Source of the DNA: a virus
Taxonomy: Duplodnaviria > Heunggongvirae > Uroviricota > Caudoviricetes
Reading direction: 5' to 3' (one strand)
IMG/VR virus record: IMGVR_UViG_2778261453_000020
DNA: 10,710 nt
Position numbers and translations under genes: made by a program. Positions 1 to 10,710 of the stretch are shown piece after piece; the first letter of the stretch is position 1; every line of letters starts with the position of its first letter. The notes below the pieces were generated by a model. That model had not been told where the DNA came from, did not search any database, and saw nothing but the letters and a program-made list of their open reading frames with translations.

Positions 1-291
1 AATGAAACACGCCAGTTCGCCCGGATGTTGGGACTTGAACCGAAGAACACGGCGGTGCGGAGTCCGGAGAGTAACGGAATAGCAGAGAGCTTCGTGAAAA
101 CGATAAAGCGTGACTACATCAGTATCATGCCCAAACCAGACGGGTTAACGGCAGCAAAGAACCTTGCAGAGGCGTTCGAGCATTATAACGAATGGCATCC
201 GCATAGTGCGCTGGGTTATCGCTCGCCACGGGAATATCTGCGGCAGCGGGCTTGTAATGGGTTAAGTGATAACAGATGTCTGGAAATATAG
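1..291 (+). CDS. insD: IS2 transposase OrfB/InsD, C-terminal fragment (5' end outside window)
   Basis: Same frame as track ORF 25-291 but open back to nt 1. Stop TAG at 289-291 lies inside the terminal inverted repeat. Sequence recognition from memory of IS3-family integrase-core C-termini. Confidence 0.7.
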
Positions 292-302
292 GGGCAAATC
301 CA
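1..302 (+). mobile_element. IS2 (IS3 family) right end, partial; the window begins inside the element
   Basis: The frame open from nt 1 translates to ...[40 protein letters not shown]...[29 protein letters not shown], which I recognise as the C-terminus of IS2 OrfB/InsD. The terminal sequence ...CAGATGTCTGGAAATATAGGGGCAAATCCA ending at 302 matches my recollection of the IS2 right inverted repeat. The exact end is from memory, not alignment. Confidence 0.7.
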
Positions 303-1910
303 AGTATCACGTATTCCTCTAAAGCCATCTCTGAAAATATGGTTATCAACAATGGCCGCGCTAATGTCTGGGCTGGCACAATGGTTAACGTGTCAGTCAG
401 AGGGAATGATGGCATTCTTGAGGTCATGAAGCCGCAAATAAATTATGCACCCGCTATGTTGGTGGGTAAGGTAGTGGTTTCTGAGGGCGCTTCTTTTAGA
501 ACGCATGGTGCCGTGGATACCAGCAAAGCGGACGTTTCGCTCGAAAATAGCGTATGGACCATCATTGCCGATATCACTACGACGAACCAAAACACCCTCC
601 TCAACTTAGCCAACCTTGCGATGTCTGACGCAAATGTGATTATGATGGATGAGCCAGTGACTCGTTCATCAGTGACGGCAAGTGCGGAAAATTTCATTAC
701 GTTGAACACCAATACCCTGTCGGGAAACGGCAATTTTTATATGCGTACCGATATGGCTAATCATCAGAGCGATCAGCTCAACGTCACCGGTCAGGCAACA
801 GGTGATTTCAAAATATTCGTGACGGACACCGGTGCCAGCCCGGCAGCAGGAGATAGCCTTACACTGGTAACAACGGGCGGCGGTGATGCTGCATTTACGT
901 TGGGCAATGCCGGAGGCGTTGTTGATATCGGTACGTATGAATATACCTTGCTGGATAATGGCAACCATAGCTGGAGTTTGGCAGAGAATCGCGCGCAAAT
1001 TACCCCTTCAACCACTGATGTGCTGAATATGGCGGCCGCACAACCGCTGGTATTTGATGCAGAACTGGACACCGTGCGTGAGCGTCTTGGTAGCGTAAAA
1101 GGCGTTAGTTACGATACGGCGATGTGGAGTTCGGCAATTAACACCCGCAACAACGTGACCACTGATGCGGGAGCTGGTTTTGAGCAAACATTGACGGGCC
1201 TGACGCTCGGTATCGATAGCCGTTTCTCCCGTGAAGAAAGCAGTACAATTCGCGGCTTGTTCTTTGGTTACTCTCATTCTGATATTGGTTTTGATCGCGG
1301 CGGAAAAGGTAATATCGATAGCTATACCCTGGGGGCTTATGCCGGTTGGGAGCATCAGAACGGTGCCTATGTTGATGGGGTGGTGAAAGTTGACCGTTTT
1401 GCCAACACCATCCATGGCAAGATGAGTAATGGGGCAACAGCGTTTGGCGATTACAATAGTAACGGCGCGGGTGCTCATGTTGAGAGCGGGTTCCGTTGGG
1501 TTGACGGATTGTGGAGTATTAGACCCTATCTGGCCTTTACCGGCTTTACCACAGATGGTCAGGACTACACGTTATCAAACGGCATGCGCGCTGATGTGGG
1601 AAATACCCGGATATTACGCGCTGAAGCGGGAACGGCGGTAAGCTATCACATGGACCTGCAAAATGGTACGACGCTGGAACCCTGGCTGAAAGCCGCCGTA
1701 CGTCAGGAATACGCCGATTCTAACCATGTGAAAGTTAATGACGATGGCAAATTTAATAATGATGTGGCTGGAACCCGTGGCGTTTATCAGGCTGGGATAA
1801 GGTCATCGTTTACCCCGACGTTAAGCGGTCATTTGTCAGTCAGCTATGGCAATGGCGCAGGGGTAGAATCGCCGTGGAATACTCAGGCGGGTGTGGTCTG
1901 GACGTTCTGA
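303..1910 (+). pseudogene. Type Va autotransporter adhesin, C-terminal passenger and beta-barrel portion; gene interrupted by IS2
   Basis: Track ORF 276-1910 has its ATG inside the IS2 end, so that start is an artefact. Translation is Gly/Thr/Asn/Ser-rich with repeated passenger-like segments and ends ...NTQAGVVWTF with a terminal aromatic residue, typical of autotransporter barrels. The 5' part of the gene must lie beyond the IS outside the window. Confidence 0.7.
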
Positions 1911-1971
1911 TAACAAAAAATAAACAGGCTGTGATGTGTCACGGTCTGTTTATCGAATTAATTGCAGATAT

Positions 1972-2002
1972 AAAAAAAACCAACCGTAAAGGTTGGTTTT
2001 TT
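1972..2002. terminator. Bidirectional rho-independent terminator
   Basis: A8-CCAACC-GTAAA-GGTTGG-T6: perfect 6-bp stem, 5-nt loop, flanked by an A-run upstream and a T-run downstream, so it reads as hairpin plus U-tract on either strand. It lies about 60 bp after the autotransporter stop. Confidence 0.6.
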
Positions 2003-2228
2003 CTTGGGATTTTTGGCACGAGAGTAGTTTGATTTGTCGTGCAACTACATGATTTAAAATAATATTTCTGATTCAACCTTTAAGCCGTATAACCAAACGT
2101 ATAACTAAAATGATTTGCTGCAAAAATGTACAATTTAAAGCCGGATTTTCCCAGCGGTTTATGAAACTGCGAAAATTTCGTAGTTATCCCGATACGGGGA
2201 TCACCATATCGGGATTAATGCTATGAAA

Positions 2229-3155
2229 TCAGTTTTTAGCCAGAGCGGTGACGGCCTTATCTAGTTTTTGCCATCCGCAATAGGTGATTGCCCTGAACGC
2301 TGTAGCGTCATTCTGGAAAAGACTAACCGCCCCTGATTCGGTTTTTATTACCGCCTCATCAGTTGGGGTTATAACCGTGGCTTCAACGTTAATAATCAGC
2401 TTTTGAGCGTCTATCAGCATCATGCGATCCGCCTGTTCGCTCACAATTACCGGTATTCTCAAAAGCTCTATCTGCCAGAACTCAGCATCAGTAAGCTGTA
2501 AGGCGTTTTCTACGGGCAAGATTAGCGACGACGTGGCGAGCGTGTTACCGTTCGCTATGTGTTTTTTGAAAAGCTCTATAAAGTTTTCTGCTTCATCTGC
2601 ACCGTTAAGCACGCCTTCAGGTGACACGCCTTCTTCCTCCTGGTCACTGGAAAGAAATTTTTTATTAATTTCTTTCACCGATTCCGATGTGATCAAGTCT
2701 CTGATAGCTGAATTTGTACCAGGGGTGCTAAATTTGATTAGCTCGTTATTCAGCATCACAATAGCGCCGAGTTTGCACAGTTTTAGCGCACTTTCGTTAA
2801 CTTCTCCCTCTTTGACAGGGATTTCTTCGGCTTCTTTAAGCCATTTACTACCCTTGCCTGATATTGACTGCAATTTTGCGCCAAACGGAAGATTTAGCGC
2901 GCTGCTGATTAGCTTGCCTGGTACAGACTGCGAAAAAATATACTCGCCAAGCTCTCTTACTATCGGCTCTGCCACCAGCGACGGCATATTATCCGTAGTC
3001 ATTCCGGCAACAATGGATTTTTCAAGAAATTTCGATACTGCCGGATCATTTTTTTTCGTCATTTCAATTGCGTCTGCATGGCTGAATTTACACGATGTAA
3101 GCACGCTGGCGGCGCGAACTGCCGACACGCCTTTCATGTTTTTAGAAATCATCAT
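2229..3155 (-). CDS. HK97-fold major capsid protein-like (Phage_capsid family), 308 aa
   Basis: The central region KLGAIVMLNNELIKFS...SAIRDLITSESVKEINKKFLSSDQEEEGVSPEGVL and the following ...SSLILPVENALQL...IPVIVS... follow the residue pattern I recall for HK97 gp5-type capsid proteins (K.hA..h.....hL.GDG.....EGL, then ...GIVLNP...). Its ATG overlaps the stop of the preceding small ORF. Confidence 0.5.
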   Translation of the reverse strand: MMISKNMKGVSAVRAASVLTSCKFSHADAIEMTKKNDPAVSKFLEKSIVAGMTTDNMPSLVAEPIVRELGEYIFSQSVPGKLISSALNLPFGAKLQSISGKGSKWLKEAEEIPVKEGEVNESALKLCKLGAIVMLNNELIKFSTPGTNSAIRDLITSESVKEINKKFLSSDQEEEGVSPEGVLNGADEAENFIELFKKHIANGNTLATSSLILPVENALQLTDAEFWQIELLRIPVIVSEQADRMMLIDAQKLIINVEATVITPTDEAVIKTESGAVSLFQNDATAFRAITYCGWQKLDKAVTALAKN

Positions 3156-3303
3156 CTTCTTCCTCCTGGTAACATGGGGTTAGGGTTTCGTGAAAATATG
3201 GCATCAGAACAGCGGCAGCCTGTAACCGTATTTCGGTTGGCTGCTGCTTGTCGTTCATGATTTCCGTGAGTACATCAATAGGGTCTGTGATGTATTCGTT
3301 CAT
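3142..3303 (-). CDS. Small protein (53 aa) with acidic tail EEEDDDF, translationally coupled to the capsid gene
   Basis: Hand translation MNEYITDPIDVLTEIMNDKQQPTEIRLQAAAVLMPYFHETLTPCYQEEEDDDF*. GAGG sits 8-9 nt upstream of the ATG and overlaps the terS stop. The ORF ends 13 nt inside the capsid ORF in another frame. Not in the supplied track. Confidence 0.4.
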   Translation of the reverse strand: MNEYITDPIDVLTEIMNDKQQPTEIRLQAAAVLMPYFHETLTPCYQEEEDDDF

Positions 3304-3314
3304 AGTTCGCTACC

Positions 3315-3803
3315 TCAGTGTTTTAAGCCTGTTGGTGGCTTAGGGATGGGGAACCGATTTGAGGAGACATTAGCGGCATTGAGTTTTTTAACCTCTTTTT
3401 TCCCAATGCTGCCGATCTTGCGGTGGGTGAACTGGGCCAGCTTAAACGCGGCATCTAAAGCCAGTTTTGGATCTGTGTCTATGTTGTCAGCCAGTATCCT
3501 GCCCATAGCTTTGATAGGGTCGGGCAAGCCGTTGTCCATCCGTTCTATGGTGCTGATTGATGCCCGTTCCGGTGTAACTTTTTCGGTAACTTTCTTTGTA
3601 ACTTTTTTCGGTTTTGTAACCTGAAAAGTTACATCAGGAGTTACAGCCTTAAGATACTTTTTCACCTCAGGCTCGTTGGATAGCTGCCAGCCTTTAACCC
3701 TTGCGGTCTTTTCGCTGTATCCCGCATGTATAGCGGCTTCCGTGGGATTTGCGCCCCTTGATAACGCATCAGCAAACCGCTTTTTTTTGGTCGTTAATGC
3801 CAT
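3315..3803 (-). CDS. Terminase small subunit (TerS), 162 aa
   Basis: Track ORF 3315-3941, but the N-terminal 46 residues are low-complexity read-through. Start placed at MALTTKKKRFADALSRGANPTEAAIHAGYSEKTARVKGWQLSNEPEVKKYL, which matches the N-terminal helix-turn-helix pattern of TerS proteins (AGYS.KTA...G..LL..P.V..YL). GAGG lies 7 nt upstream of this ATG. Confidence 0.6.
   Translation of the reverse strand: MALTTKKKRFADALSRGANPTEAAIHAGYSEKTARVKGWQLSNEPEVKKYLKAVTPDVTFQVTKPKKVTKKVTEKVTPERASISTIERMDNGLPDPIKAMGRILADNIDTDPKLALDAAFKLAQFTHRKIGSIGKKEVKKLNAANVSSNRFPIPKPPTGLKH
3574..3644. repeat. Six GTAAC pentamers at 12-bp periodicity inside terS (four direct, two inverted)
   Basis: GTAAC at 3574, 3586, 3598 and 3616, then GTTAC at 3628 and 3640. 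On the coding strand this spans the KVT-rich linker ...VTKPKKVTKKVTEKVTPE of TerS. Confidence 0.55.
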
Positions 3804-3930
3804 GCAAAAACCTCGTTTTGAGGGGGTGTAACTTTTCGTGTAACTTTTTTGAAAAGCAAAATTTTCTACGAATGAGACGGGGGGCGGTGTCCAGGGCGAT
3901 CGCCTTTCCGGCCGGAACACTCCCCCCCTG
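3804..3930 (-). promoter_or_regulatory. Candidate packaging site (cos/pac-like): GC-rich dyad plus two GTAAC repeats immediately upstream of terS
   Basis: 3877-3929 is an extended imperfect palindrome (ACGGGGGGCGGTGT ... ACACTCCCCCCC) enclosing the perfect palindromes GGCGATCGCC (3895-3904) and CCGGCCGG (3908-3915). Two further GTAAC copies sit 12 bp apart at 3828 and 3840, between the dyad and the terS ATG. The functional assignment is inference. Confidence 0.3.
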
Positions 3931-4092
3931 TCATTGCTCACCGAGTAACGAGATCAGGCCTTCAACTTCATCGCTCAGCTTGTTTATTCGTGTCTCAAGC
4001 TCTGCGATCTTTTCCATTAATGGCGCTATCGTGTCTCTTGTTTCCTCGCCAATGGCTTTAATGATGCTTGCCTCGCGTTCTGTGATAGCCAT
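3931..4092 (-). CDS. Small predicted helical protein, 53 aa
   Basis: Hand translation MAITEREASIIKAIGEETRDTIAPLMEKIAELETRINKLSDEVEGLISLLGEQ*. AGGA lies 6 nt upstream of the ATG, and the ATG is 2 nt after the stop of the upstream ORF. Not in the supplied track. Confidence 0.4.
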   Translation of the reverse strand: MAITEREASIIKAIGEETRDTIAPLMEKIAELETRINKLSDEVEGLISLLGEQ

Positions 4093-4094
4093 TG

Positions 4095-4289
4095 TTATTC
4101 CTCACCCGTTGCAATGCCCAGGCGTTCGCGTAACAGCACGCGAGCAAGATGGCCTACTGTTGGCGTGGCGGCTCTGCCGTATATACCAGCTTCATTCATC
4201 CGGCGAATAACATCGAATTGAAGTTTTTTAAGCTCGTTTAGGATCTCGTGATCAATCATCACGGTAGCGCTTTGCTTTATCTGTTCCAC
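4095..4289 (-). CDS. Small hypothetical protein (64 aa), possible ribbon-helix-helix-like regulator
   Basis: GTG start with AGGAGG 7 nt upstream. Sequence ...SATVMIDHEILNELKKLQFDVIRRMNEAG...TVGHLARVLLRERLG reads as beta-strand plus two helices; the fold assignment is a guess. Confidence 0.45.
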   Translation of the reverse strand: MEQIKQSATVMIDHEILNELKKLQFDVIRRMNEAGIYGRAATPTVGHLARVLLRERLGIATGEE

Positions 4290-4376
4290 TTTATGACCTC
4301 CTGATATTTATCATTACATAATCGATATTTTCGATAGATATTCATCAATTAACCATATTATCAGATATGTAAGAAC

Positions 4377-4400
4377 AAAAAAAAGCCGGAGCGATCCGGC
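4377..4400 (-). terminator. Rho-independent terminator after ssb
   Basis: Minus strand reads GCCGGA-TCGC-TCCGGC followed by U8, 17 nt after the ssb stop. Confidence 0.7.
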
Positions 4401-4416
4401 TTCTGTTACTCGTTGC

Positions 4417-4827
4417 TTAAAACGGAATATCATCACCGTAGGGGTCATCGCCTCCCGCTGGTGGCTGATTACCCTGTGTGCCTGTGGTTTTGCGTCTGCT
4501 CCCGCCAGGACACGCCGTCTTCGCACTGATTACGCTGTCTGCGATAACCTGCCAGCCCTGCCGTGTTTCCCCGTTCTGTTCGGTCCACTGGCTGACCTGC
4601 ATCGTGCCGGATACGCTGGCAACGTCACCCTTTTGATGTTTAGCCAGGTAGTCGGCCTGCTTACCAAATGCGATGACCGATAGCCATAACGTCGCCTGTC
4701 CATCCTGTGCCTGGCTGCATGGCAACGATACCGCCATACGCGCCAGCGTCATTGGTGTACCCTTGCTGGTCTGTTTTACCTGCGGGTCAGCCACCAGCCG
4801 TCCGTAAGCCGCTATCTGTGCTGTCAT
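4417..4827 (-). CDS. ssb: Single-stranded DNA-binding protein (SSB-like), 136 aa
   Basis: OB-fold-like N-terminus (...LWLSVIAFGKQADYLAKHQKGDVASVSGTMQVSQWTEQNGETRQGW...), Gly/Pro-rich linker and the acidic tail ...GDDPYGDDIPF characteristic of bacterial and phage SSBs. Its ATG overlaps the upstream stop as ATGA. Confidence 0.65.
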   Translation of the reverse strand: MTAQIAAYGRLVADPQVKQTSKGTPMTLARMAVSLPCSQAQDGQATLWLSVIAFGKQADYLAKHQKGDVASVSGTMQVSQWTEQNGETRQGWQVIADSVISAKTACPGGSRRKTTGTQGNQPPAGGDDPYGDDIPF

Positions 4828-5075: not shown

Positions 5076-5288
5076 TCCCCACTACTCCCCACTTTTGTTC
5101 CCCACTTTTTAAATTCCCCACTTGCTCCCCACGTCGTTTTTTTGGTGAATCTAATGCTTTGTTTTTCATTGCGTTTTTTACTCCCCACTTTTTTGGATGT
5201 ATACAGGTGGGAAAGTGGGGAATTATGTTTTTATTTTGTTAAATTCCCCACTATCCCCACTTTTATTACCCACTTTTTACAGTGGGTA
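5076..5288. repeat. Iteron-like array of octamer TCCCCACT (about 9 direct and 2-3 inverted copies); candidate replication origin
   Basis: Direct copies at 5076, 5086, 5099, 5115, 5126 (variant TCCCCACG), 5182, 5245, 5255 and 5267 (variant TACCCACT). Inverted AGTGGGGA at 5215, with degenerate inverted copies at 5205 and 5281. Spacings of 10-13 bp. An AT-rich tract at 5134-5180 separates two clusters. Confidence 0.6.
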
Positions 5289-6683
5289 AACATCATCCCC
5301 ATCGACACAAATCACGCCGTCTTTTTCCAGCTTGGACAGCCAGCGCCGGAAGTGCTTCATCTCATATCCCAGCTTTTTCATATCGTCGCGGAGAAGGGCG
5401 ATAGTGCATGGTTCTTTGTGTGCCGTCCGCGTTCTGATGCACTGCCATAGCGCCGCGTGATTCTCCGATTTGTTGCCTGCTTCCTCGATGCGCTCCAGTT
5501 CAGCAGGGGCGCGGGGAACGTCAATCACCACCATGGACACAATCTCTTCGCCATCTGTATCGGTGAACACCTCCACGCTTTTAAGGTCGTATGCACTTTC
5601 TTTTGGCTCCTCTGCGTCCTTCATCTTCGTGCATGCCGCCACCAGTGCTGTAACGTCTGAATTTTCCCGACTGATTCGGAACTCAGCATCAAGCGCCGCA
5701 CGGAATGCGCTGGAACCGCGCGCCCCTTTCGTCTCATCCTTGCCGGAATGGTGAACCACCAGCACGGTAGCCCCTGTTGCCTGCTTTATCGCGTCACATC
5801 CCTGGATAAATGCGCCCATGTCGCGGGAGTCATTTTCATCATGACCGCCAAAGCAACGGGCCAGCGTATCAATGACGATCATCCGCACCCGTTCGCCCGT
5901 TGTGCTCTGCACAAATCCGGCAGTCCTTATTACCTGTTCCACATAGTCCGGCGATGCGGGGAATACTGGCGAATTGACGATACACAAATCAGTAACCTCC
6001 TTACCGTGGGTTATTTCCCATGCCTTAACGCGGCGTTTTACGCCCATGCTGCCTTCACCAGCAACATAGATAACCGCGCCTTTACACACCCTTCGGCCTC
6101 CCCATTTCATGCCAGTAGCAACATGACACGCCCACGAAATGGCGAGGAACGATTTATAAGAACCGCTGGCTCCGTAGGTGCTGCATAATGACTCAGCCGG
6201 AATAAGCCCCTTAATTACGTAGCTTTGCTGCGCGTCGAATCCCTCAGACCCCCATGAGATGGGAAGTGTGATTTTTCGCTTTCCGCCATTCATGACCAGG
6301 CTTTCCCCACGTTCCCAGGTTTCTTTAAGCCGCGGTAGTTGCTCGCTCCAGTCCTCCAGCAATTCGAAATTTTCAGAAAGTAGCCGCGCCTCCTGGACTC
6401 CGGCGATCGCCAGTTTTGTGGCAATGGTCAGCATCTGCATATCGTCCAGATTTCCGGCACGTATGACCTTTGTCCTGTATCGTCCTTCATCAACAATCTG
6501 TAAGTTGTCCAGTTCGTTTAACTGATAACGGCCCAGGTAAACCGGAGGGATGGGATCGCCCGCTTTTTTGGCCTGCGCAATCATGTAATGTTCTGCAAAG
6601 GAGTGAGCATCATTCCCCGCGAAAATAATTGCTTCGGTGTGTTTGTCTTTCGGTAATAGTTTTACGTTCGGTGCCAGTTTCAT
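5277..6683 (-). CDS. RepA-like replicative helicase / replication initiator (RecA-fold ATPase), 468 aa
   Basis: P-loop-like YGASGSYKS, Walker-B-like RMIVIDTL, and ATVLVVHHSGKD, which is the HHxGK motif I associate with RepA/DnaB-like phage and plasmid helicases. The C-terminal approx. 70 aa look like a possible DNA-binding domain, and the gene ends inside the iteron array. Confidence 0.6.
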   Translation of the reverse strand: MKLAPNVKLLPKDKHTEAIIFAGNDAHSFAEHYMIAQAKKAGDPIPPVYLGRYQLNELDNLQIVDEGRYRTKVIRAGNLDDMQMLTIATKLAIAGVQEARLLSENFELLEDWSEQLPRLKETWERGESLVMNGGKRKITLPISWGSEGFDAQQSYVIKGLIPAESLCSTYGASGSYKSFLAISWACHVATGMKWGGRRVCKGAVIYVAGEGSMGVKRRVKAWEITHGKEVTDLCIVNSPVFPASPDYVEQVIRTAGFVQSTTGERVRMIVIDTLARCFGGHDENDSRDMGAFIQGCDAIKQATGATVLVVHHSGKDETKGARGSSAFRAALDAEFRISRENSDVTALVAACTKMKDAEEPKESAYDLKSVEVFTDTDGEEIVSMVVIDVPRAPAELERIEEAGNKSENHAALWQCIRTRTAHKEPCTIALLRDDMKKLGYEMKHFRRWLSKLEKDGVICVDGDDVYPL

Positions 6684-6979
6684 TTTTTACCCCTGAATAC
6701 ATTCAACATCTTTCTTATTTCCTGAATATTGGCGCGTGCTTTCTCCCTGCTGGTGGGCTTACTGCGTTGCGCTGCCTGCACCAATGTAAAATCACGGGCG
6801 AACTGATAAACAGGCATCACGCAATCATATTCGTAGCCTTCACGACGGTAGGTTACGCGCCGTTCCTCCACGCCCTTAATCATTACCGTGCCGCCGTACT
6901 GGTCGCGGTAAATATCACCGCGCATGAATTTAGTGCGAGTTTTGCCACTGGCAGTTAAGCCAGAATATCTAAGTTTCAT
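6680..6979 (-). CDS. Hypothetical protein, 99 aa
   Basis: Track ORF with GGAG 9 nt upstream of the ATG; its stop overlaps the helicase ATG as ATGA. Confidence 0.45.
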   Translation of the reverse strand: MKLRYSGLTASGKTRTKFMRGDIYRDQYGGTVMIKGVEERRVTYRREGYEYDCVMPVYQFARDFTLVQAAQRSKPTSREKARANIQEIRKMLNVFRGKK

Positions 6980-6984
6980 TATTT

Positions 6985-7215
6985 TTATTCTCCGGTATGG
7001 GGCGAGTTATTATTCTCGTGAATTGCCATTGCCTTATCCAGTTCATCAATAACAGGCGATAGTAATGTCTGAATGGCTGCAAACATTAATGACGCAGCTT
7101 CTTTTCCATCTTCCGGCGCTTCAATTAATTTGCCTAACAACGCATTCATTTCGCGTGCTTTAATTAATGCGTTTTCAGAGTGGATTAATATTTCAAAAGG
7201 GATTTTATGCATCAC
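6985..7215 (-). CDS. Hypothetical helical protein, about 75 aa
   Basis: Track ORF with GTG at 7215 or ATG at 7212; AGGGAG lies upstream. It overlaps the 3' end of the preceding ORF. Confidence 0.4.
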   Translation of the reverse strand: MMHKIPFEILIHSENALIKAREMNALLGKLIEAPEDGKEAASLMFAAIQTLLSPVIDELDKAMAIHENNNSPHTGE

Positions 7216-7435
7216 AAATTTTCTCCCTTATTCTTTTAATGTCCTCATTAAGGATGTCTGTAACTTTTATCAGCGAGTTTTTGGCAATTATTTTTATTGT
7301 TTTAAGTTTTCTTTTGTCGTGCTCCGACTGTGATTTTCTCTCCATAATCTCCACCATGTGGGTAACATCAACGAGCGCACGTATCAGTATTTGCATTGCT
7401 TCTTCTGCTGCGTCCGGACGGGTGTTATTGCACAT
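7205..7435 (-). CDS. Hypothetical protein, 76 aa
   Basis: Track ORF 7205-7465, trimmed to the ATG at 7435 (AGGGGG 6 nt upstream) because the longer form would overlap the Icd-like gene by 40 nt. The C-terminal half is encoded in an AT-rich stretch (about 7205-7330). Confidence 0.4.
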   Translation of the reverse strand: MCNNTRPDAAEEAMQILIRALVDVTHMVEIMERKSQSEHDKRKLKTIKIIAKNSLIKVTDILNEDIKRIREKICDA

Positions 7436-7598
7436 GGCACACCCCCTGACGAATACGGGCGACAAAAATCAGATGTGCGTGCGGCAGCTGCGCACGGGCT
7501 TCGCGCTCAGTGGCAGCGGTAACGGTGAAAATATCAATGTTGCTGTGGTGGCACTGCATAAAGCGCCAGACAAAGTAAGGGCGTGCGGATACAGCCAT
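7425..7598 (-). CDS. Icd-like (host cell-division inhibitor family) small protein, 57 aa
   Basis: MAVSARPYFVWRFMQCHHSNIDIFTVTAATEREARAQLPHAHLIFVARIRQGVCHVQ*, with GGGAG 8 nt upstream of the ATG. Paralogous to the 7885-8082 ORF (shared FVWRF, TEREAR, ARIRQG). The Icd-like assignment is from memory of P1/P4-type family patterns. Confidence 0.5.
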   Translation of the reverse strand: MAVSARPYFVWRFMQCHHSNIDIFTVTAATEREARAQLPHAHLIFVARIRQGVCHVQ

Positions 7599-7762
7599 GT
7601 GAAAGGCTCCCAGATGAATTATAAGGAGTCTCGCTACTACGCTGCTAAACGGGGTGGCGAGACGTAACAGGGTTAGCAGACTGGTCATCTGGAAACCAGC
7701 GAGCGCAAAGGCTCCCCCGTTACGCCCCGCCATAATGCGGGTATGGGTAGGTTTACGGACAC

Positions 7763-7884
7763 AAAAAAACCGCTTATCGGATGTGGGCGGCTGTCCGCCA
7801 GATGTATTCAGGCTGCTAAACCCGGTCGCCATGTGGGCGACGGGGGAAGCATACAGCCCCGTGATAATTTTTTGCAAGCGGTTT
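7763..7884 (-). ncRNA. Candidate structured RNA (multi-stem, cloverleaf-like) ending in a U7 tract, between the two Icd-like genes
   Basis: On the minus strand, AAAAACCGCUU (7884-7874) can pair with AAGCGGUUUUU (7775-7765). This encloses hairpins GGGG/CCCC, GUCGCC-CACAU-GGCGAC and GGCGG-ACAG-CCGCC. Folds were judged by eye only. Confidence 0.25.
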
Positions 7885-8082
7885 TTACGCATGATGTGAC
7901 CCCTGACGAATACGGGCGGCGAATACAGCAACACAACCTGACGGGCAACGGTTACGCGCTTCGCGTTCCGTCCAGGCGGTTACGTGGATGATTTGAGATT
8001 CTCCGGCACTCAGGGCCAGAAAACGCCACACAAAGGCCGTTTGTGTGTGTACAAGGTGTGGTATATGATTTACGGCAACCAT
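7885..8082 (-). CDS. Icd-like small protein, 65 aa
   Basis: MVAVNHIPHLVHTQTAFVWRFLALSAGESQIIHVTAWTEREARNRCPSGCVAVFAARIRQGSHHA*, with AGGAG 5 nt upstream of the ATG. The track shows this as the 3' end of a 288-aa ORF, which I reject. Confidence 0.5.
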   Translation of the reverse strand: MVAVNHIPHLVHTQTAFVWRFLALSAGESQIIHVTAWTEREARNRCPSGCVAVFAARIRQGSHHA

Positions 8083-8170
8083 AACGGCTCCTAGTTTACG
8101 TTGTTGGTTAGACGCCCCGTATGTGTTCCCAGCACTGCGGGGCGTTGATTTTTGTGTAATGGCAAGTACA

Positions 8171-8219
8171 ATGGTAATTACCATGTAGGTATAGTAATGA
8201 AGGGTAATTACCATGTCAA
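8171..8219 (-). promoter_or_regulatory. Sigma70-like promoter (TTGACA-17-TACTAT) for the icd/replication operon with two palindromic operators
   Basis: Minus-strand -35 TTGACA (8219-8214), 17-nt spacer, -10 TACTAT (8196-8191). Perfect palindrome GGTAATTACC at 8203-8212 sits in the spacer. ATGGTAATTACCAT at 8171-8184 sits at about +1 to +14. Confidence 0.5.
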
Positions 8220-8386
8220 CACCATTAGAAAAACGTTCGCCTCCATACCAAATGCGATTACCGGAAGACTTCAGAGCGCAGCTAGAAGAAGCAGCTAAGG
8301 CCGATGGCGACACATCTTTAGCCACTTGGATTAAACGCGTTCTCCGCAAAGAATTACAGCAACGCGGCATAGAACCCAAAGGATAA
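8213..8386 (+). CDS. Ribbon-helix-helix (Arc/MetJ-like) DNA-binding protein, 57 aa; candidate repressor
   Basis: Hand translation MSTPLEKRSPPYQMRLPEDFRAQLEEAAKADGDTSLATWIKRVLRKELQQRGIEPKG*. YQMRLPEDFRAQLEEAAKADG...SLATWIKRVL fits the beta-strand/helix/helix pattern of Arc-type repressors. It is divergent from the operator-bearing promoter. Not in the supplied track; its own promoter was not identified. Confidence 0.55.
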   Translation: MSTPLEKRSPPYQMRLPEDFRAQLEEAAKADGDTSLATWIKRVLRKELQQRGIEPKG

Positions 8387-8443
8387 AAACTATCAGCGCC
8401 GTGGTGTGAGGTATTACGGCGCATTGCTATGCAGGACAACACA

Positions 8444-8617
8444 ATGACCGATAAAGAATTGACCAAAACATTATCACCGGCACGGAAAAGACGGCGCAGA
8501 AAGATAGAGCATGAATCAGAAAGATTCGCGCCATGTGCTTTTGCCCTTGAGCAATTCCTTAAAGAGTATAGGGAAAAGCGCTCATTGCAGGTATGGCAAC
8601 GAACTGAACCAGACTGA
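8444..8617 (+). CDS. Possible small basic protein with arginine-rich motif, 57 aa
   Basis: In-frame part of track ORF 8429-8617; AGGA lies 7 nt upstream of the ATG at 8444. Contains ARKRRRRK. It sits between the RHH gene and the terminator at 8712-8739. Coding status is uncertain. Confidence 0.25.
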   Translation: MTDKELTKTLSPARKRRRRKIEHESERFAPCAFALEQFLKEYREKRSLQVWQRTEPD

Positions 8618-8711
8618 TTGCATTGCCCACCAGCCTGATAGCGGCTATCATCCCCGTGCTTATTTTTGGGATCACATACACATAAGGCGCAGCGGGTTAA
8701 TTGTTCAGAAA

Positions 8712-8739
8712 GGCGGCTCCATATCGGGGCCGCTTTTTT
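8712..8739 (+). terminator. Rho-independent terminator
   Basis: GCGGCUCC-AUAUC-GGGGCCGC (8-bp stem with one G-U pair) followed by U6 at 8734-8739. The reverse-strand hairpin has a mismatch and a poor U-tract. Confidence 0.65.
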
Positions 8740-8765
8740 CGTGTTTGTCATATCTGTGATACCCG

Positions 8766-8972
8766 TTAAGCAGCCGTTCCGCGTGCTTCCTGTTCGCGTT
8801 CTTTCTGCCAGGCCAACACATCATCCTCATACCATCCGCGACGGCGTAAACCAACGCGAAAACCCTGCGGAAATTCTCCGGCGTTGATCATGCTTTGCAG
8901 CGTGCTGTCTGCCTTGATGTGGATAATTTTTTTTACTTCCTGGCGAAAGATAATTTTTCTGATTGCTTCCAT
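8766..8972 (-). CDS. alpA: AlpA-family (phage Vis/AlpA-type) DNA-binding regulator, 68 aa
   Basis: ...KIIHIKADSTLQSMINAGEFPQGFRVGLRRRGWYEDDVLAWQKERE... matches the AlpA helix-turn-helix pattern. It lies next to a P4-type integrase, as is usual for such islands. Confidence 0.7.
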   Translation of the reverse strand: MEAIRKIIFRQEVKKIIHIKADSTLQSMINAGEFPQGFRVGLRRRGWYEDDVLAWQKEREQEARGTAA

Positions 8973-9105
8973 CGTGATTTACCTTGTGAATCCGGTGTAT
9001 TCCGGTGACAAATACGGTAAATCATCGGATATGGGTAAAAACAGTTCCCACCGTTTTTAAACGGTATACACCGTTTTTTATATTGATGATTTGAAATGGA
9101 ATTAT

Positions 9106-9129
9106 AAAAAAAGCGGCATTTCTGCCGCT
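9106..9129 (-). terminator. Rho-independent terminator after the integrase operon
   Basis: Minus strand reads GCGGCA-GAAA-UGCCGC followed by U7, 11 nt after the stop of ORF 9140-9391. Confidence 0.65.
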
Positions 9130-9468: not shown

Positions 9469-10710
9469 CTACACGGCTCGGATACCCCTTTTACCACTGG
9501 CGAGGGTTACGCCCGTCGCCGCAGCCTCGACAAATTCGCCCCACCAGCGCATCAGCACGATGCGTTTTTCTATGTAGTTGCTCCGGTTGTATGCCCGTCT
9601 AACTTCGTTGGTGTCGACGTGGGCAAGTGCCGCCTCTATTACGTCCGGCTCGAATCCTTCCTCGTTCGCTGCTGTGCTGAATATGGCGCGTAATCCATGA
9701 GACACCAGCACGCCAGCAAATCCCATACGCCGCAATGCTGCGTTAGCTGTCTGGCTGTTCATCGGCTGCTGTGGGTCTTTCAGGCTTGGGAAAACGTAAT
9801 TGCGGTGGTGGCTGATTGGTTTCATGGCCTCCAGCACCGCCATAGCCTGACCGGAAAGCGGGATAACGTGATCCCTGCGCATCTTCATGCGTCCGGCAGG
9901 TATCGTCCATTGCTTCGCGTCCAGGTTGATTTCATCCCACCGCGTTGATGACGCTTCGGCGGGACGGGTTACGGTCAGTAACTGCCATTCAATCAGTAAT
10001 CTGGTCTGCCGTTCTGTTGCCGATACTGATAAAGCCTGCATAAGCTCCGGCAGCTGTTCGGGGCGGATTGTTGGCATATGTTTTTTTACAGGTGAGGGAA
10101 ACGCCTTACGCACATTCATAGCCGGATTGGCATCAATCAGCCCACTGTTGGCGGCGTAATCCATTACCTCATTAACGCGCTGTAAAACCCGCTTGAGTGT
10201 TTCCAGGTTGCCGCGCTCCTTGATGGGTGTAAGCACCTCAACGAATCTTCGGGCGGTGAGGGTATCTATTGGCGTGTTGCCGATGAACGGGAATACATAT
10301 TTATCCAGCGAACGCCAGATGTCTTTAATCGTGTTGGGGGCCAGATTCTGGCTGATTTTCACCTGGTACCATGCCGCCGCCACATTTTCGAACGTGTTCC
10401 CTTGTCTTCGGGCCTCTGTCTCTCTTTTTTGCCTCTCGTGGTCCTGCGGGTCAGTTCCGGCACGAATTAACGCCCTGTACTCGCTACGGCGTTTTCTGGC
10501 ATCAGCCAGGGAAACATCTTCAAGCGATCCAAAACTCAGCAATATTCTTTTTTTGTCCGATGGTCGGTAGTAGGAAAATCTCCAGAGTTTTGATCCAGAC
10601 GGTTTGACCAGGAGAAAAAGCCCTCCGCCGTCCTGCAGGGTGTACTCCTTTTGCGCTGGTCTGGCTGCTTTGATCTGCACTGTGGTTAATGGGTGTGTTT
10701 TTCTCGCCAT
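9469..10710 (-). CDS. P4-type tyrosine integrase, 413 aa
   Basis: N-terminal ...GLFLLVKPSGSKLWRFSYYRP... arm-binding-like domain. Catalytic-core motifs: R in ...TVTRPAEAS..., HGLRAIF (H-x-x-R), and ...ALAHVDTNEVRRAYNRSNYIEKR with the likely catalytic Tyr. The ATG is the final base of the window, so the promoter and attachment site are outside it. Confidence 0.85.
   Translation of the reverse strand: MARKTHPLTTVQIKAARPAQKEYTLQDGGGLFLLVKPSGSKLWRFSYYRPSDKKRILLSFGSLEDVSLADARKRRSEYRALIRAGTDPQDHERQKRETEARRQGNTFENVAAAWYQVKISQNLAPNTIKDIWRSLDKYVFPFIGNTPIDTLTARRFVEVLTPIKERGNLETLKRVLQRVNEVMDYAANSGLIDANPAMNVRKAFPSPVKKHMPTIRPEQLPELMQALSVSATERQTRLLIEWQLLTVTRPAEASSTRWDEINLDAKQWTIPAGRMKMRRDHVIPLSGQAMAVLEAMKPISHHRNYVFPSLKDPQQPMNSQTANAALRRMGFAGVLVSHGLRAIFSTAANEEGFEPDVIEAALAHVDTNEVRRAYNRSNYIEKRIVLMRWWGEFVEAAATGVTLASGKRGIRAV

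Follow-up and report, generated by a model that had tools for sequence, protein, structure and literature searches.

The stretch of DNA analysed here (the window: IMG/VR virus record IMGVR_UViG_2778261453_000020, Caudoviricetes, 10,710 nt) very probably holds, as judged from its letters, the DNA-packaging start site of a phage satellite of the phage-inducible chromosomal island (PICI) type. Between a short upstream open reading frame (ORF) and the satellite's own gene for a small terminase subunit (terS, encoding TerS) lies a core that is homologous to experimentally mapped cohesive-end (cos) sites of phages that carry an HNH endonuclease gene next to their terminase genes. Beyond this core, at a fixed distance, stand short repeats that co-vary with the lineage of TerS and that continue inside terS itself. 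Our reading, to which we assign a probability of about 0.8, is that positions 3804–3935 and the terS-internal repeats together form a functional cos site of the HK97 type, for both the start and the end of packaging, with TerS-specific repeats.

The predicted cut site and its mapped relatives

The gap between the stop codon of the upstream 53-aa ORF (3931–4092) and the terS ATG (3803) is exactly 3804–3930, the positions given in an earlier note on this DNA, and the GC-rich dyad and the two GTAAC repeats that the note described upstream of terS are all in place. The 20-nt core in this gap, GGACACCGCCCCCCGTCTCA, is identical at 20 of 20 positions to that of phage 1717 and at 19 of 20 to the corresponding junctions of the phages Lys8385Vzw and fEg-Aba01. 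No match to the 20-mer is expected in shuffles of the window, and a search of 2.3 Gb of phage DNA with the core gave matches to cos regions at E = 3e-9. When a 151-nt query from the island was compared with GenBank phages, 78 records were found, nearly all of them Shiga toxin (Stx)-converting phages, and in the annotated cases the match lay directly after the stop codon of the HNH gene. The spacer between HNH and terS in the prophage of Escherichia coli 90-3040 holds CGATCGCCCCGGACACCGCCCCCCGTCTCATGCAGAGAAAAAATT, for which the island counterpart is CGATCGCCCTGGACACCGCCCCCCGTCTCATTCGTAGAAAATTTT.

The ends of the DNA have been mapped in relatives of this site. Lys8385Vzw, an Stx1 phage of E. coli, is a cos phage with 3' cohesive ends, and its cos was determined with PhageTerm as CGCCCCCCCT (PMC7946995); its record ends in ...GGACACCGCCCCCCCT and starts with CTCACGCAGAG. 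The Acinetobacter phages fEg-Aba01, fLi-Aba02 and fLi-Aba03 have 10-nt 3' ends, 5'-CGCCCCCCAT-3', established with PhageTerm and a restriction gel of heated and cooled DNA (PMC7354433), and the record of the A. baumannii phage fEg-Aba01 ends in ...GGACACCGCCCCCCAT, with CGCCCCCCAT annotated as '3' cohesive end'. From the homology to the mapped ends of Lys8385Vzw and fEg-Aba01, the island overhang is predicted to be CGCCCCCCGT, the core arm being composed of GGACAC, CGCCCCCCGT and CTCA. Cleavage of the island core to this 10-nt 3' overhang is predicted to depend on the large terminase subunit (TerL) and HNH. The cut would fall 73 nt before the terS ATG, with the site oriented as it is in the phages, and both this location and the homology to a cos site mapped on virion DNA are as in HK97-type cos sites. 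Thus, the cos-type layout proposed in the earlier note (cleavage site, TerS-binding repeats, terS) holds by comparison with virion-mapped phages; the relationship to phage lambda that was proposed with it does not.

We aligned the cos regions of the window island, a second E. coli island lineage, a Col-type contig, a Salmonella island, a Hafnia phage, phage 1717 and the 90-3040 prophage. The conserved parts were a G-run, the core (GGACACC.C.CC..C.TCTCA) and an A-rich spacer after it. The G-run is also present in fEg-Aba01 and in HK97, where it stands ∼40 nt before the right end; the distance from GGATCA to the end is 38 nt in HK97 and 39–40 nt in the Stx phages. Through the spacer motif, the distance between the cut and the first repeat stays constant.

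Putative recognition repeats and small terminase lineages

The two upstream GTAAC repeats start at 3828 and 3840, 12 bp apart, and lie within two copies of GTGTAACTTTT (3826–3836 and 3838–3848). The earlier note was right about this pair, yet the pair is only part of the array, which is bipartite: a proximal pair stands before terS and a distal group of six further copies inside it, ∼230–310 nt after the cut. Read on the plus strand, the internal copies are GTAAC at 3574, 3586, 3598 and 3616 and GTTAC at 3628 and 3640, and an exact reverse complement of AAAGTTACA lies at 3625–3633. Positions 3560–3860 contain eight GTAAC/GTTAC pentamers compared to 0.6 expected (at most 4 in 5000 mononucleotide shuffles).

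A search of IMG/VR found the core, as GGACACCGCSCCCCNTCTCA, in >120 stretches, of which 80 were retrieved. The retrieved stretches and the loci already in hand gave 82 loci with a recognisable TerS after the core, and these TerS proteins formed six clusters at 70% identity. In every cluster the first repeat began 48–50 nt from the start of the core, i.e. 33–34 nt after the cut. The repeat itself followed the TerS lineage: the motif was CAGTTAACATGTTAAC in the 1717 type (n = 41, TerS of 187 aa), with five GTTAAC and no GTTAC per locus; GTGTAAACATGTTAAC in a second type with a TerS of 151–170 aa (n = 24); AAAAGTTAAAGCAAAAGTTAAAGG in a phage type that includes the relatives of fEg-Aba01 and in which a TerS of 155–160 aa is followed by TerL (n = 8); and AAAAGTTACAC in three island-type clusters (n = 9), namely the window type, the type of two E. 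coli draft loci (L019 and L025), and the Hafnia phage with the Salmonella island. The repeat types that track the lineages are GTTAAC, GTAAAC and GTTAAA, with GTTAC in three related lineages including that of the island. The presumed recognition helix of TerS changes in parallel: the 1717 type has SAKTARVKGSQL, the second type SEKTARSQGSRL, the phage type EEKTASQQGSKL and the island types S(E/G)KTARVKG(W/C)QL, and W39 of the island helix is S in 1717. An arrangement of cosN (cleavage) and cosB (binding) predicts just this: one cut site in common, and at a constant distance from it a repeat that differs between lineages. The repeats of the island are probably read by its own TerS.

The copies inside terS are conserved at the level of the DNA. 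Codons 54–77 read VT..VT..VT.....VT...VT...VT, written as GTA-ACT twice (the inverted motif) and then as GTT-ACA/C four times. Throughout seven island-type genes (five distinct sequences), all 27 VT pairs of this linker use GTT-AC or GTA-AC, compared to 20 of the 32 Val codons elsewhere in the same genes that are GTT or GTA. Moreover, the GTTAAA lineage has GTTAAA instead of GTTAC inside the gene; these copies stand in frames 0 and 2, where they code for KLK and KVK, and the inverted TTTAAC occurs as well. Two frames that encode different residues are hard to reconcile with selection on the protein, which indicates that the terS-internal repeats are DNA-level elements. In loci of the 1717 type the start of terS lies further on, and every distal GTTAAC copy precedes the gene.

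The TerS of the island matches Pfam Terminase_2 (1.4e-10) and phrog_641 (6.6e-43), and no other family was found in a Pfam scan of the protein at E<=0.01, the Nu1 type of lambda included. It is 46% identical to the TerS of phage 1717, best conserved in a C-terminal stretch with DPxKAMG...LALDAA.KLAQFTH. A sequence search of the PDB returned only marginal matches to TerS N-domains (E at least 0.03), so that no structure was assigned, and a scan of genome representatives with the TerS protein gave 198 pattern matches, none of which was confirmed.

From these data we infer the following sequence of events. The satellite TerS would bind the AAAAGTTACAC repeats, two of them 33 and 45 nt past the cut and six in terS codons 54–77, in both orientations. 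Its C-terminal half, which resembles that of the helper phage, would then recruit the helper TerL and HNH endonuclease, and these helper enzymes would nick the shared core as GGACAC/CGCCCCCCGT/CTCA to leave a 10-nt 3' overhang, after which packaging would run toward terS. The helper TerS would read GTTAAC, which is absent from the cos–terS region of the island; the cut site would thus be kept and the recognition module swapped. The helpers exploited in this way would be HK97-like, HNH-dependent cos phages of the Pankowvirus or Stx-converting lambdoid kind. A wider scheme, which we put forward tentatively and hold a little less likely to be right than wrong, would extend this to the HNH-dependent cos phages of Enterobacteria and Acinetobacter and their satellites, possibly with small plasmids: these would share one cut site and carry a small, re-programmable set of GTTA-type repeats (GTTAAC, GTAAAC, GTTAAA and GTTAC), each read by the matching TerS lineage. 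The array would have two parts, a pair close to the cut (at a fixed 33 nt) and a second group within the TerS linker codons, and the DNA may wrap around a ring of TerS.

Other explanations of the locus

If the core were a non-functional relic that was captured together with terS, packaging could be headful, started by TerS at a pac site as in the pac-type Staphylococcus aureus pathogenicity islands (SaPIs). Terminase_2 is the family of the SPP1/SF6-type pac phages and the weak PDB matches of TerS are to SF6/SPP1-like N-domains; the SaPI TerS proteins characterised so far recognise pac sites; and the island is far smaller than the genome of a helper. On the other hand, 18–20 of the 20 core positions are kept in three island or contig lineages in which TerS is 52–62% identical and the flanks have diverged (15 of 20 in the Hafnia phage), the spacing from the core to the first repeat is constant within 1–2 nt, and cohesive ends are proven for phages that share the TerS family and the layout. 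The combination of the core with AAAAGTTACAC recurs next to a TerS 52–62% identical to that of the window in an E. coli island with its own HNH, the Salmonella island, the Hafnia phage and the Col-type contig, which argues for selection rather than a recent relic. We consider the relic explanation unlikely.

The dyad could instead be a terminator, or an RNA or DNA hairpin that separates the replication from the packaging genes, with the GTAAC repeats as operators of a regulator of terS. It stands directly after the stop codon of the upstream ORF and its RNA folds at -33 kcal/mol, and direct repeats near a gene start are typical of operators. The pairing arms are 3871–3884 with 3922–3935 (14 nt, 86% complementary) and 3879–3898 with 3909–3928 (20 nt, 75%), and the perfect palindromes that the earlier note saw embedded in the dyad are indeed there (GGCGATCGCC at 3895–3904 and CCGGCCGG at 3908–3915). 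Compared with shuffles, however, the fold is unexceptional (z = -1.2 for RNA and -1.5 for DNA). A promoter and terminator scan called no terminator and no sigma-70 promoter at the dyad or the repeats, and the dyad lacks the U-tract of an intrinsic terminator, the hairpin being followed by GUCUCAUUCGUAG on the minus strand. A search of positions 3200–4500 against Rfam at E <= 1 gave only matches at chance level (e.g. a miRNA family with 23 bits against a gathering score of 77). The consensus fold of the seven aligned cos regions contained no compensatory pairs, only G-run/C-run pairs, and its covariation term was positive (unfavourable). The absence of compensatory pairs led us to reject the hairpin or terminator. 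The arm AGTGTTCC, which pairs with GGACAC, was found in the E. coli island lineages and the Col-type contig alone and was absent from the Salmonella island, the Hafnia phage and 1717. The palindrome as a whole is therefore not the conserved or functional unit: the terS-proximal arm and the G-run (with the A-rich spacer) are conserved and the other arm varies. By this alignment the extended dyad is a lineage-specific feature and not a conserved hairpin or terminator. As for the operators, the repeats co-vary with the TerS lineage and continue into the coding region in both orientations, which an operator leaves unexplained, and we regard this explanation as very improbable.

A lambda-type cos (12-nt 5' overhang, in the order cosN, cosB, Nu1), as the earlier note had suggested, is scarcely credible: the 9 of 12 identities that it counted to lambda GGGCGGCGACCT (a cosN sequence confirmed in PMC12315714) are real, being GGGCGGTGTCCA at 3882–3893, and E. 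coli PICIs with a lambda-like cosN are known (EcCICFT073), but the match is on the plus strand, inverted relative to terS, and overlaps the predicted overhang only partly, the whole 20-mer is identical to HNH-type cores, the helper-like prophages carry HNH and an HK97-like terminase arrangement, and TerS is of the Terminase_2 family and not Nu1-like. We rejected homology to lambda cosN by orientation and TerS family; the site is related instead to the HNH-associated cos of the HK97 type, which has a 10-nt 3' overhang.

Several points weigh against a functional HK97-type cos in the island. The HNH gene that adjoins such sites is missing, as the ORFs at 3931–4092 and 4095–4289 have no HNH domain; in an island of this build HNH would have to come from the helper. 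No helper prophage is present in the window, and the helper is deduced from other genomes. Small terminases of the Terminase_2 family are familiar above all from phages with headful (pac) packaging. There are only six TerS clusters, of which the three with GTTAC are related, and this limits the phylogenetic independence of the correlation between motif and lineage. The island is estimated at ∼9 kb (from the copy in 90-3040) and the helper at ∼50–60 kb, so that packaging from cos to cos needs multimers or small capsids. The AlpA assignment is below the Pfam cutoff (17.6 versus 21 bits). Finally, what we say about function in island-type elements draws on homology and co-variation.

The satellite, its relatives and known packaging systems

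A unidirectional set of satellite genes occupies the minus strand from ∼10710 down to ∼2190 (Table 1). It comprises an integrase, an alpA-type regulator (weak), a primase-replicase, a capsid-like gene and terS, and no tail or lysis genes. This set matches the published core gene set of proteobacterial PICIs (PMC10085698) and so places the locus in a PICI-type satellite.

Table 1. Positions of the proposed packaging-site elements and of genes in the window
Feature	Positions	Strand	Evidence or remark
cos core (cosN-like), GGACACCGCCCCCCGTCTCA	3873–3892	-	20/20 match to the HNH–terS intergenic core of Stx2 phage 1717 and of the E. coli 90-3040 prophage
Predicted 10-nt 3' cohesive end, CGCCCCCCGT, with flanking nick sites	3877–3886	-	Position-for-position homology to two mapped ends
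GC-rich imperfect dyad with internal palindromes	3871–3935	.	Repeat scan
G-run (G7 on the minus strand), ∼30 nt upstream of the core; putative accessory cos element	3922–3928	-	In all lineages aligned
A/T-rich spacer after the cut, CTCATTCGTAGAAAATTTTGCTTTTCAA	3849–3876	-	Motif CTCAYNC..AGAAAAAA in all lineages
Proximal TerS-recognition repeats (cosB-like, predicted), 2 x AAAAGTTACAC, 12 bp apart	3826–3848	-	First GTTAC 33 nt and second 45 nt past the cut
Distal repeats inside terS (codons 54–77), four GTTAC and two inverted GTAAC	3573–3645	-	Code for the (K)VT repeats of the linker
Tyrosine integrase	9469–10710	-	Phage_integrase, 5.6e-29
AlpA-like protein (weak)	8766–8972	-	E = 0.0035, 17.6 bits against a Pfam cutoff of 21
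DUF4222 protein	6680–6979	-	
AAA_25 primase/helicase	5277–6683	-	3e-43; phrog_906
Single-stranded DNA-binding protein (SSB)	4417–4827	-	
Small ORF	4095–4289	-	No HNH domain by Pfam scan
53-aa ORF, stop codon abuts the G-run	3931–4092	-	No significant family; holds the place of the HNH gene in helper phages
terS, satellite small terminase, 162 aa, Terminase_2	3315–3803	-	Ribosome-binding site GAGG at 3811–3814
53-aa ORF resembling a TerS fragment	3142–3303	-	phrog_641 positions 88–126, 7e-7
Capsid-like protein, 308 aa	2229–3155	-	Phage_capsid, 9.3e-7
Rest of the packaging cassette after terS (53-aa ORF and capsid-like gene)	2229–3303	-	

The capsid-like protein aligns with residues 292–634 of the 646-aa protease-capsid fusion of the helper prophage (21% identity, E = 5e-19). 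Like Ccm of SaPIbov5, the protein is a candidate for redirecting capsid size and, as we speculate, may deal with the mismatch in size between island and helper. The 53-aa ORF between it and terS resembles TerS by eye (DPIDVLTEIMND...LQAAAVLMPYFH compared to DPIKAMGRILADN...LDAAFKLAQFTH in TerS); BLASTP of this ORF against the island TerS gave no alignment, and the likeness is a match to the profile alone. Its product could be a decoy for the region of TerS that mediates oligomerisation or TerL binding, i.e. a packaging-interference protein.

Elsewhere in the window, the minus-strand ORFs near 7425–7560 and 7885–8020 end in similar peptides (...TEREARAQLPHAHLIFVARIRQG... and ...TEREARNRCPSGCVAVFAARIRQG...), and an exact 29-nt match at 7433–7461 lies inside a gene of E. 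coli 90-3040 annotated as 'host cell division inhibitor Icd-like'; the island may carry two Icd-like modules. The left flank, on the plus strand, holds the C-terminal end of an insertion sequence (IS)-type transposase (25–291) and a truncated autotransporter (276–1910) with Pertactin and Autotransporter beta-domain matches, from which the N-terminal passenger and signal region is missing. The partial transposase and the autotransporter fragment suggest a rearranged junction beside the island.

The packaging cassette was found in 220 of 5426 complete E. coli genomes, and many of the hosts listed are O157:H7, O111, O55:H7 and other cattle or beef strains. In E. coli 90-3040 (locus L001, 4660–15161) it lies inside the terL gene of a prophage with the order HNH, terS, terL, protease-capsid, portal, so that terL is split until the island excises; this is the arrangement described for PICIs embedded in their helpers (PMC10111431). 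This arrangement lends indirect support to the possibility that the island is induced, excised and packaged with the aid of the helper. The Salmonella relative (L023) adjoins the protease-capsid and portal genes of a phage, which suggests the same arrangement. Window positions 2188–4410 and L001 positions 6888–9113 share 94.7%. The shared cassette runs from the capsid-like gene through the 53-aa ORF, terS and cos to two small ORFs, whereas the two islands have unrelated integrase and replication modules. As only the cassette is common to them, it moves between satellites with different integrases.

Two further kinds of relatives were seen. A locus in an E. coli draft genome (L019, 5348–5836) encodes a TerS that is 62% identical to that of the window and has its own HNH gene directly upstream of the core; this lineage is an intermediate between the minimal cassette and the capsid-forming PICIs (cf-PICIs). 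Two E. coli draft contigs of 11.7 and 13.5 kb (L025, positions 5700–6510, and L026) have the core, many AAAAGTTACAC and an island-type terS, and otherwise carry Rop, a PvuII-type restriction-modification system and a colicin, immunity and lysis operon. From this gene content they look like a ColE1-like plasmid with an acquired phage-packaging module. A search of PLSDB with the Col-type cos–terS module returned only a 35-bp match to the core in two large plasmids and no matching plasmid, and a search of a phage database with the cluster-B cos region had no match.

Among known systems, the Pankowvirus-like Stx phages (Lys8385Vzw, 1717 and BP-4795) and fEg-Aba01 are the closest: they have the same core (19–20 of 20; GGACAC, a 10-nt C-rich 3' end and CTCA), the G-run, the A-rich spacer, a first repeat 33–34 nt past the cut and terS next. 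Their repeats are GTTAAC (Stx phages) or GTTAAA (fEg-Aba01), whereas the island has GTTAC, and in the phages HNH precedes the site and terL follows terS, whereas in the island the 53-aa ORF precedes it and the capsid-like gene follows. The archetype of cos packaging assisted by HNH, with 10-nt 3' overhangs, is HK97 (PMC9410871). Its site, too, lies between HNH (gp74) and terS (gp1; TerL is gp2), and its cleavage is stimulated by HNH. HK97 differs in the overhang and its flanks (it ends in ...GACCGCCGCCAAA), in a TerS of another sequence family and in having no GTTA-type repeats between the cut and the stop codon of terS.

Other satellites share parts of this arrangement. EcCICFT073 (cos1 and Rpp; Fillol-Salom 2018, 2019) has a helper-like cosN with a different cosB, read by a satellite DNA-binding protein that diverts the helper terminase; however, its overhang is of the lambda type (5'), and Rpp needs to form a heterocomplex with the helper TerS, whereas the window island has a complete TerS homologue. 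SaPIbov5, with the HNH-carrying helpers phi12 and phiSLT, combines an HNH-dependent helper cos with the capsid homologue Ccm; its host is Gram-positive, the helper terminase complex is described as acting on a copy of the helper cos, and no swap of recognition is described. In the pac-type SaPIs (TerS-S and Ppi) a satellite TerS likewise redirects packaging, but it recognises pac and packaging is headful. The cf-PICIs also use HNH-type packaging, with a whole module of their own (HNH, TerS, TerL and capsid), compared to terS and a capsid-like gene in the island.

The packaging strategies listed for satellites are a copy of the helper cos, a satellite TerS with its own pac, Rpp, and the complete cf-PICI module. 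Our data suggest that the locus is a fifth combination, in which a putative helper HNH-type cut site is joined to a private TerS and private repeats. PICIs of Gram-negative hosts that carry terS, PICIs embedded in helpers, satellites with a helper cos and the exchange of cosB through Rpp are already known. In the literature that we searched, no satellite is described in which a helper cut site of the HNH type is combined with private repeats and a TerS of the satellite itself, and neither the co-variation of repeats and TerS nor the intragenic sites are described; a study of lateral transduction (PMC12829572) and a review of lambda-type PICI cos sites (PMC9026076) contain nothing on HNH-type satellite cos sites.

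If our reading is true, the satellite would divert the packaging machine of its helper to itself. If the wider scheme is true as well, satellites would gain priority simply from a common cut site combined with a private pair of repeat and TerS, and the repeat and TerS pairs would be a natural set of orthogonal packaging specificities and a tractable recognition code for TerS proteins of the Terminase_2 family. The co-variation of repeat and TerS also provides a testable handle on DNA recognition by the small terminases of this family, which is so far poorly understood. With Stx-converting phages as its likely helpers, the element could influence how much Stx phage is produced as well as gene transfer in these pathogens.

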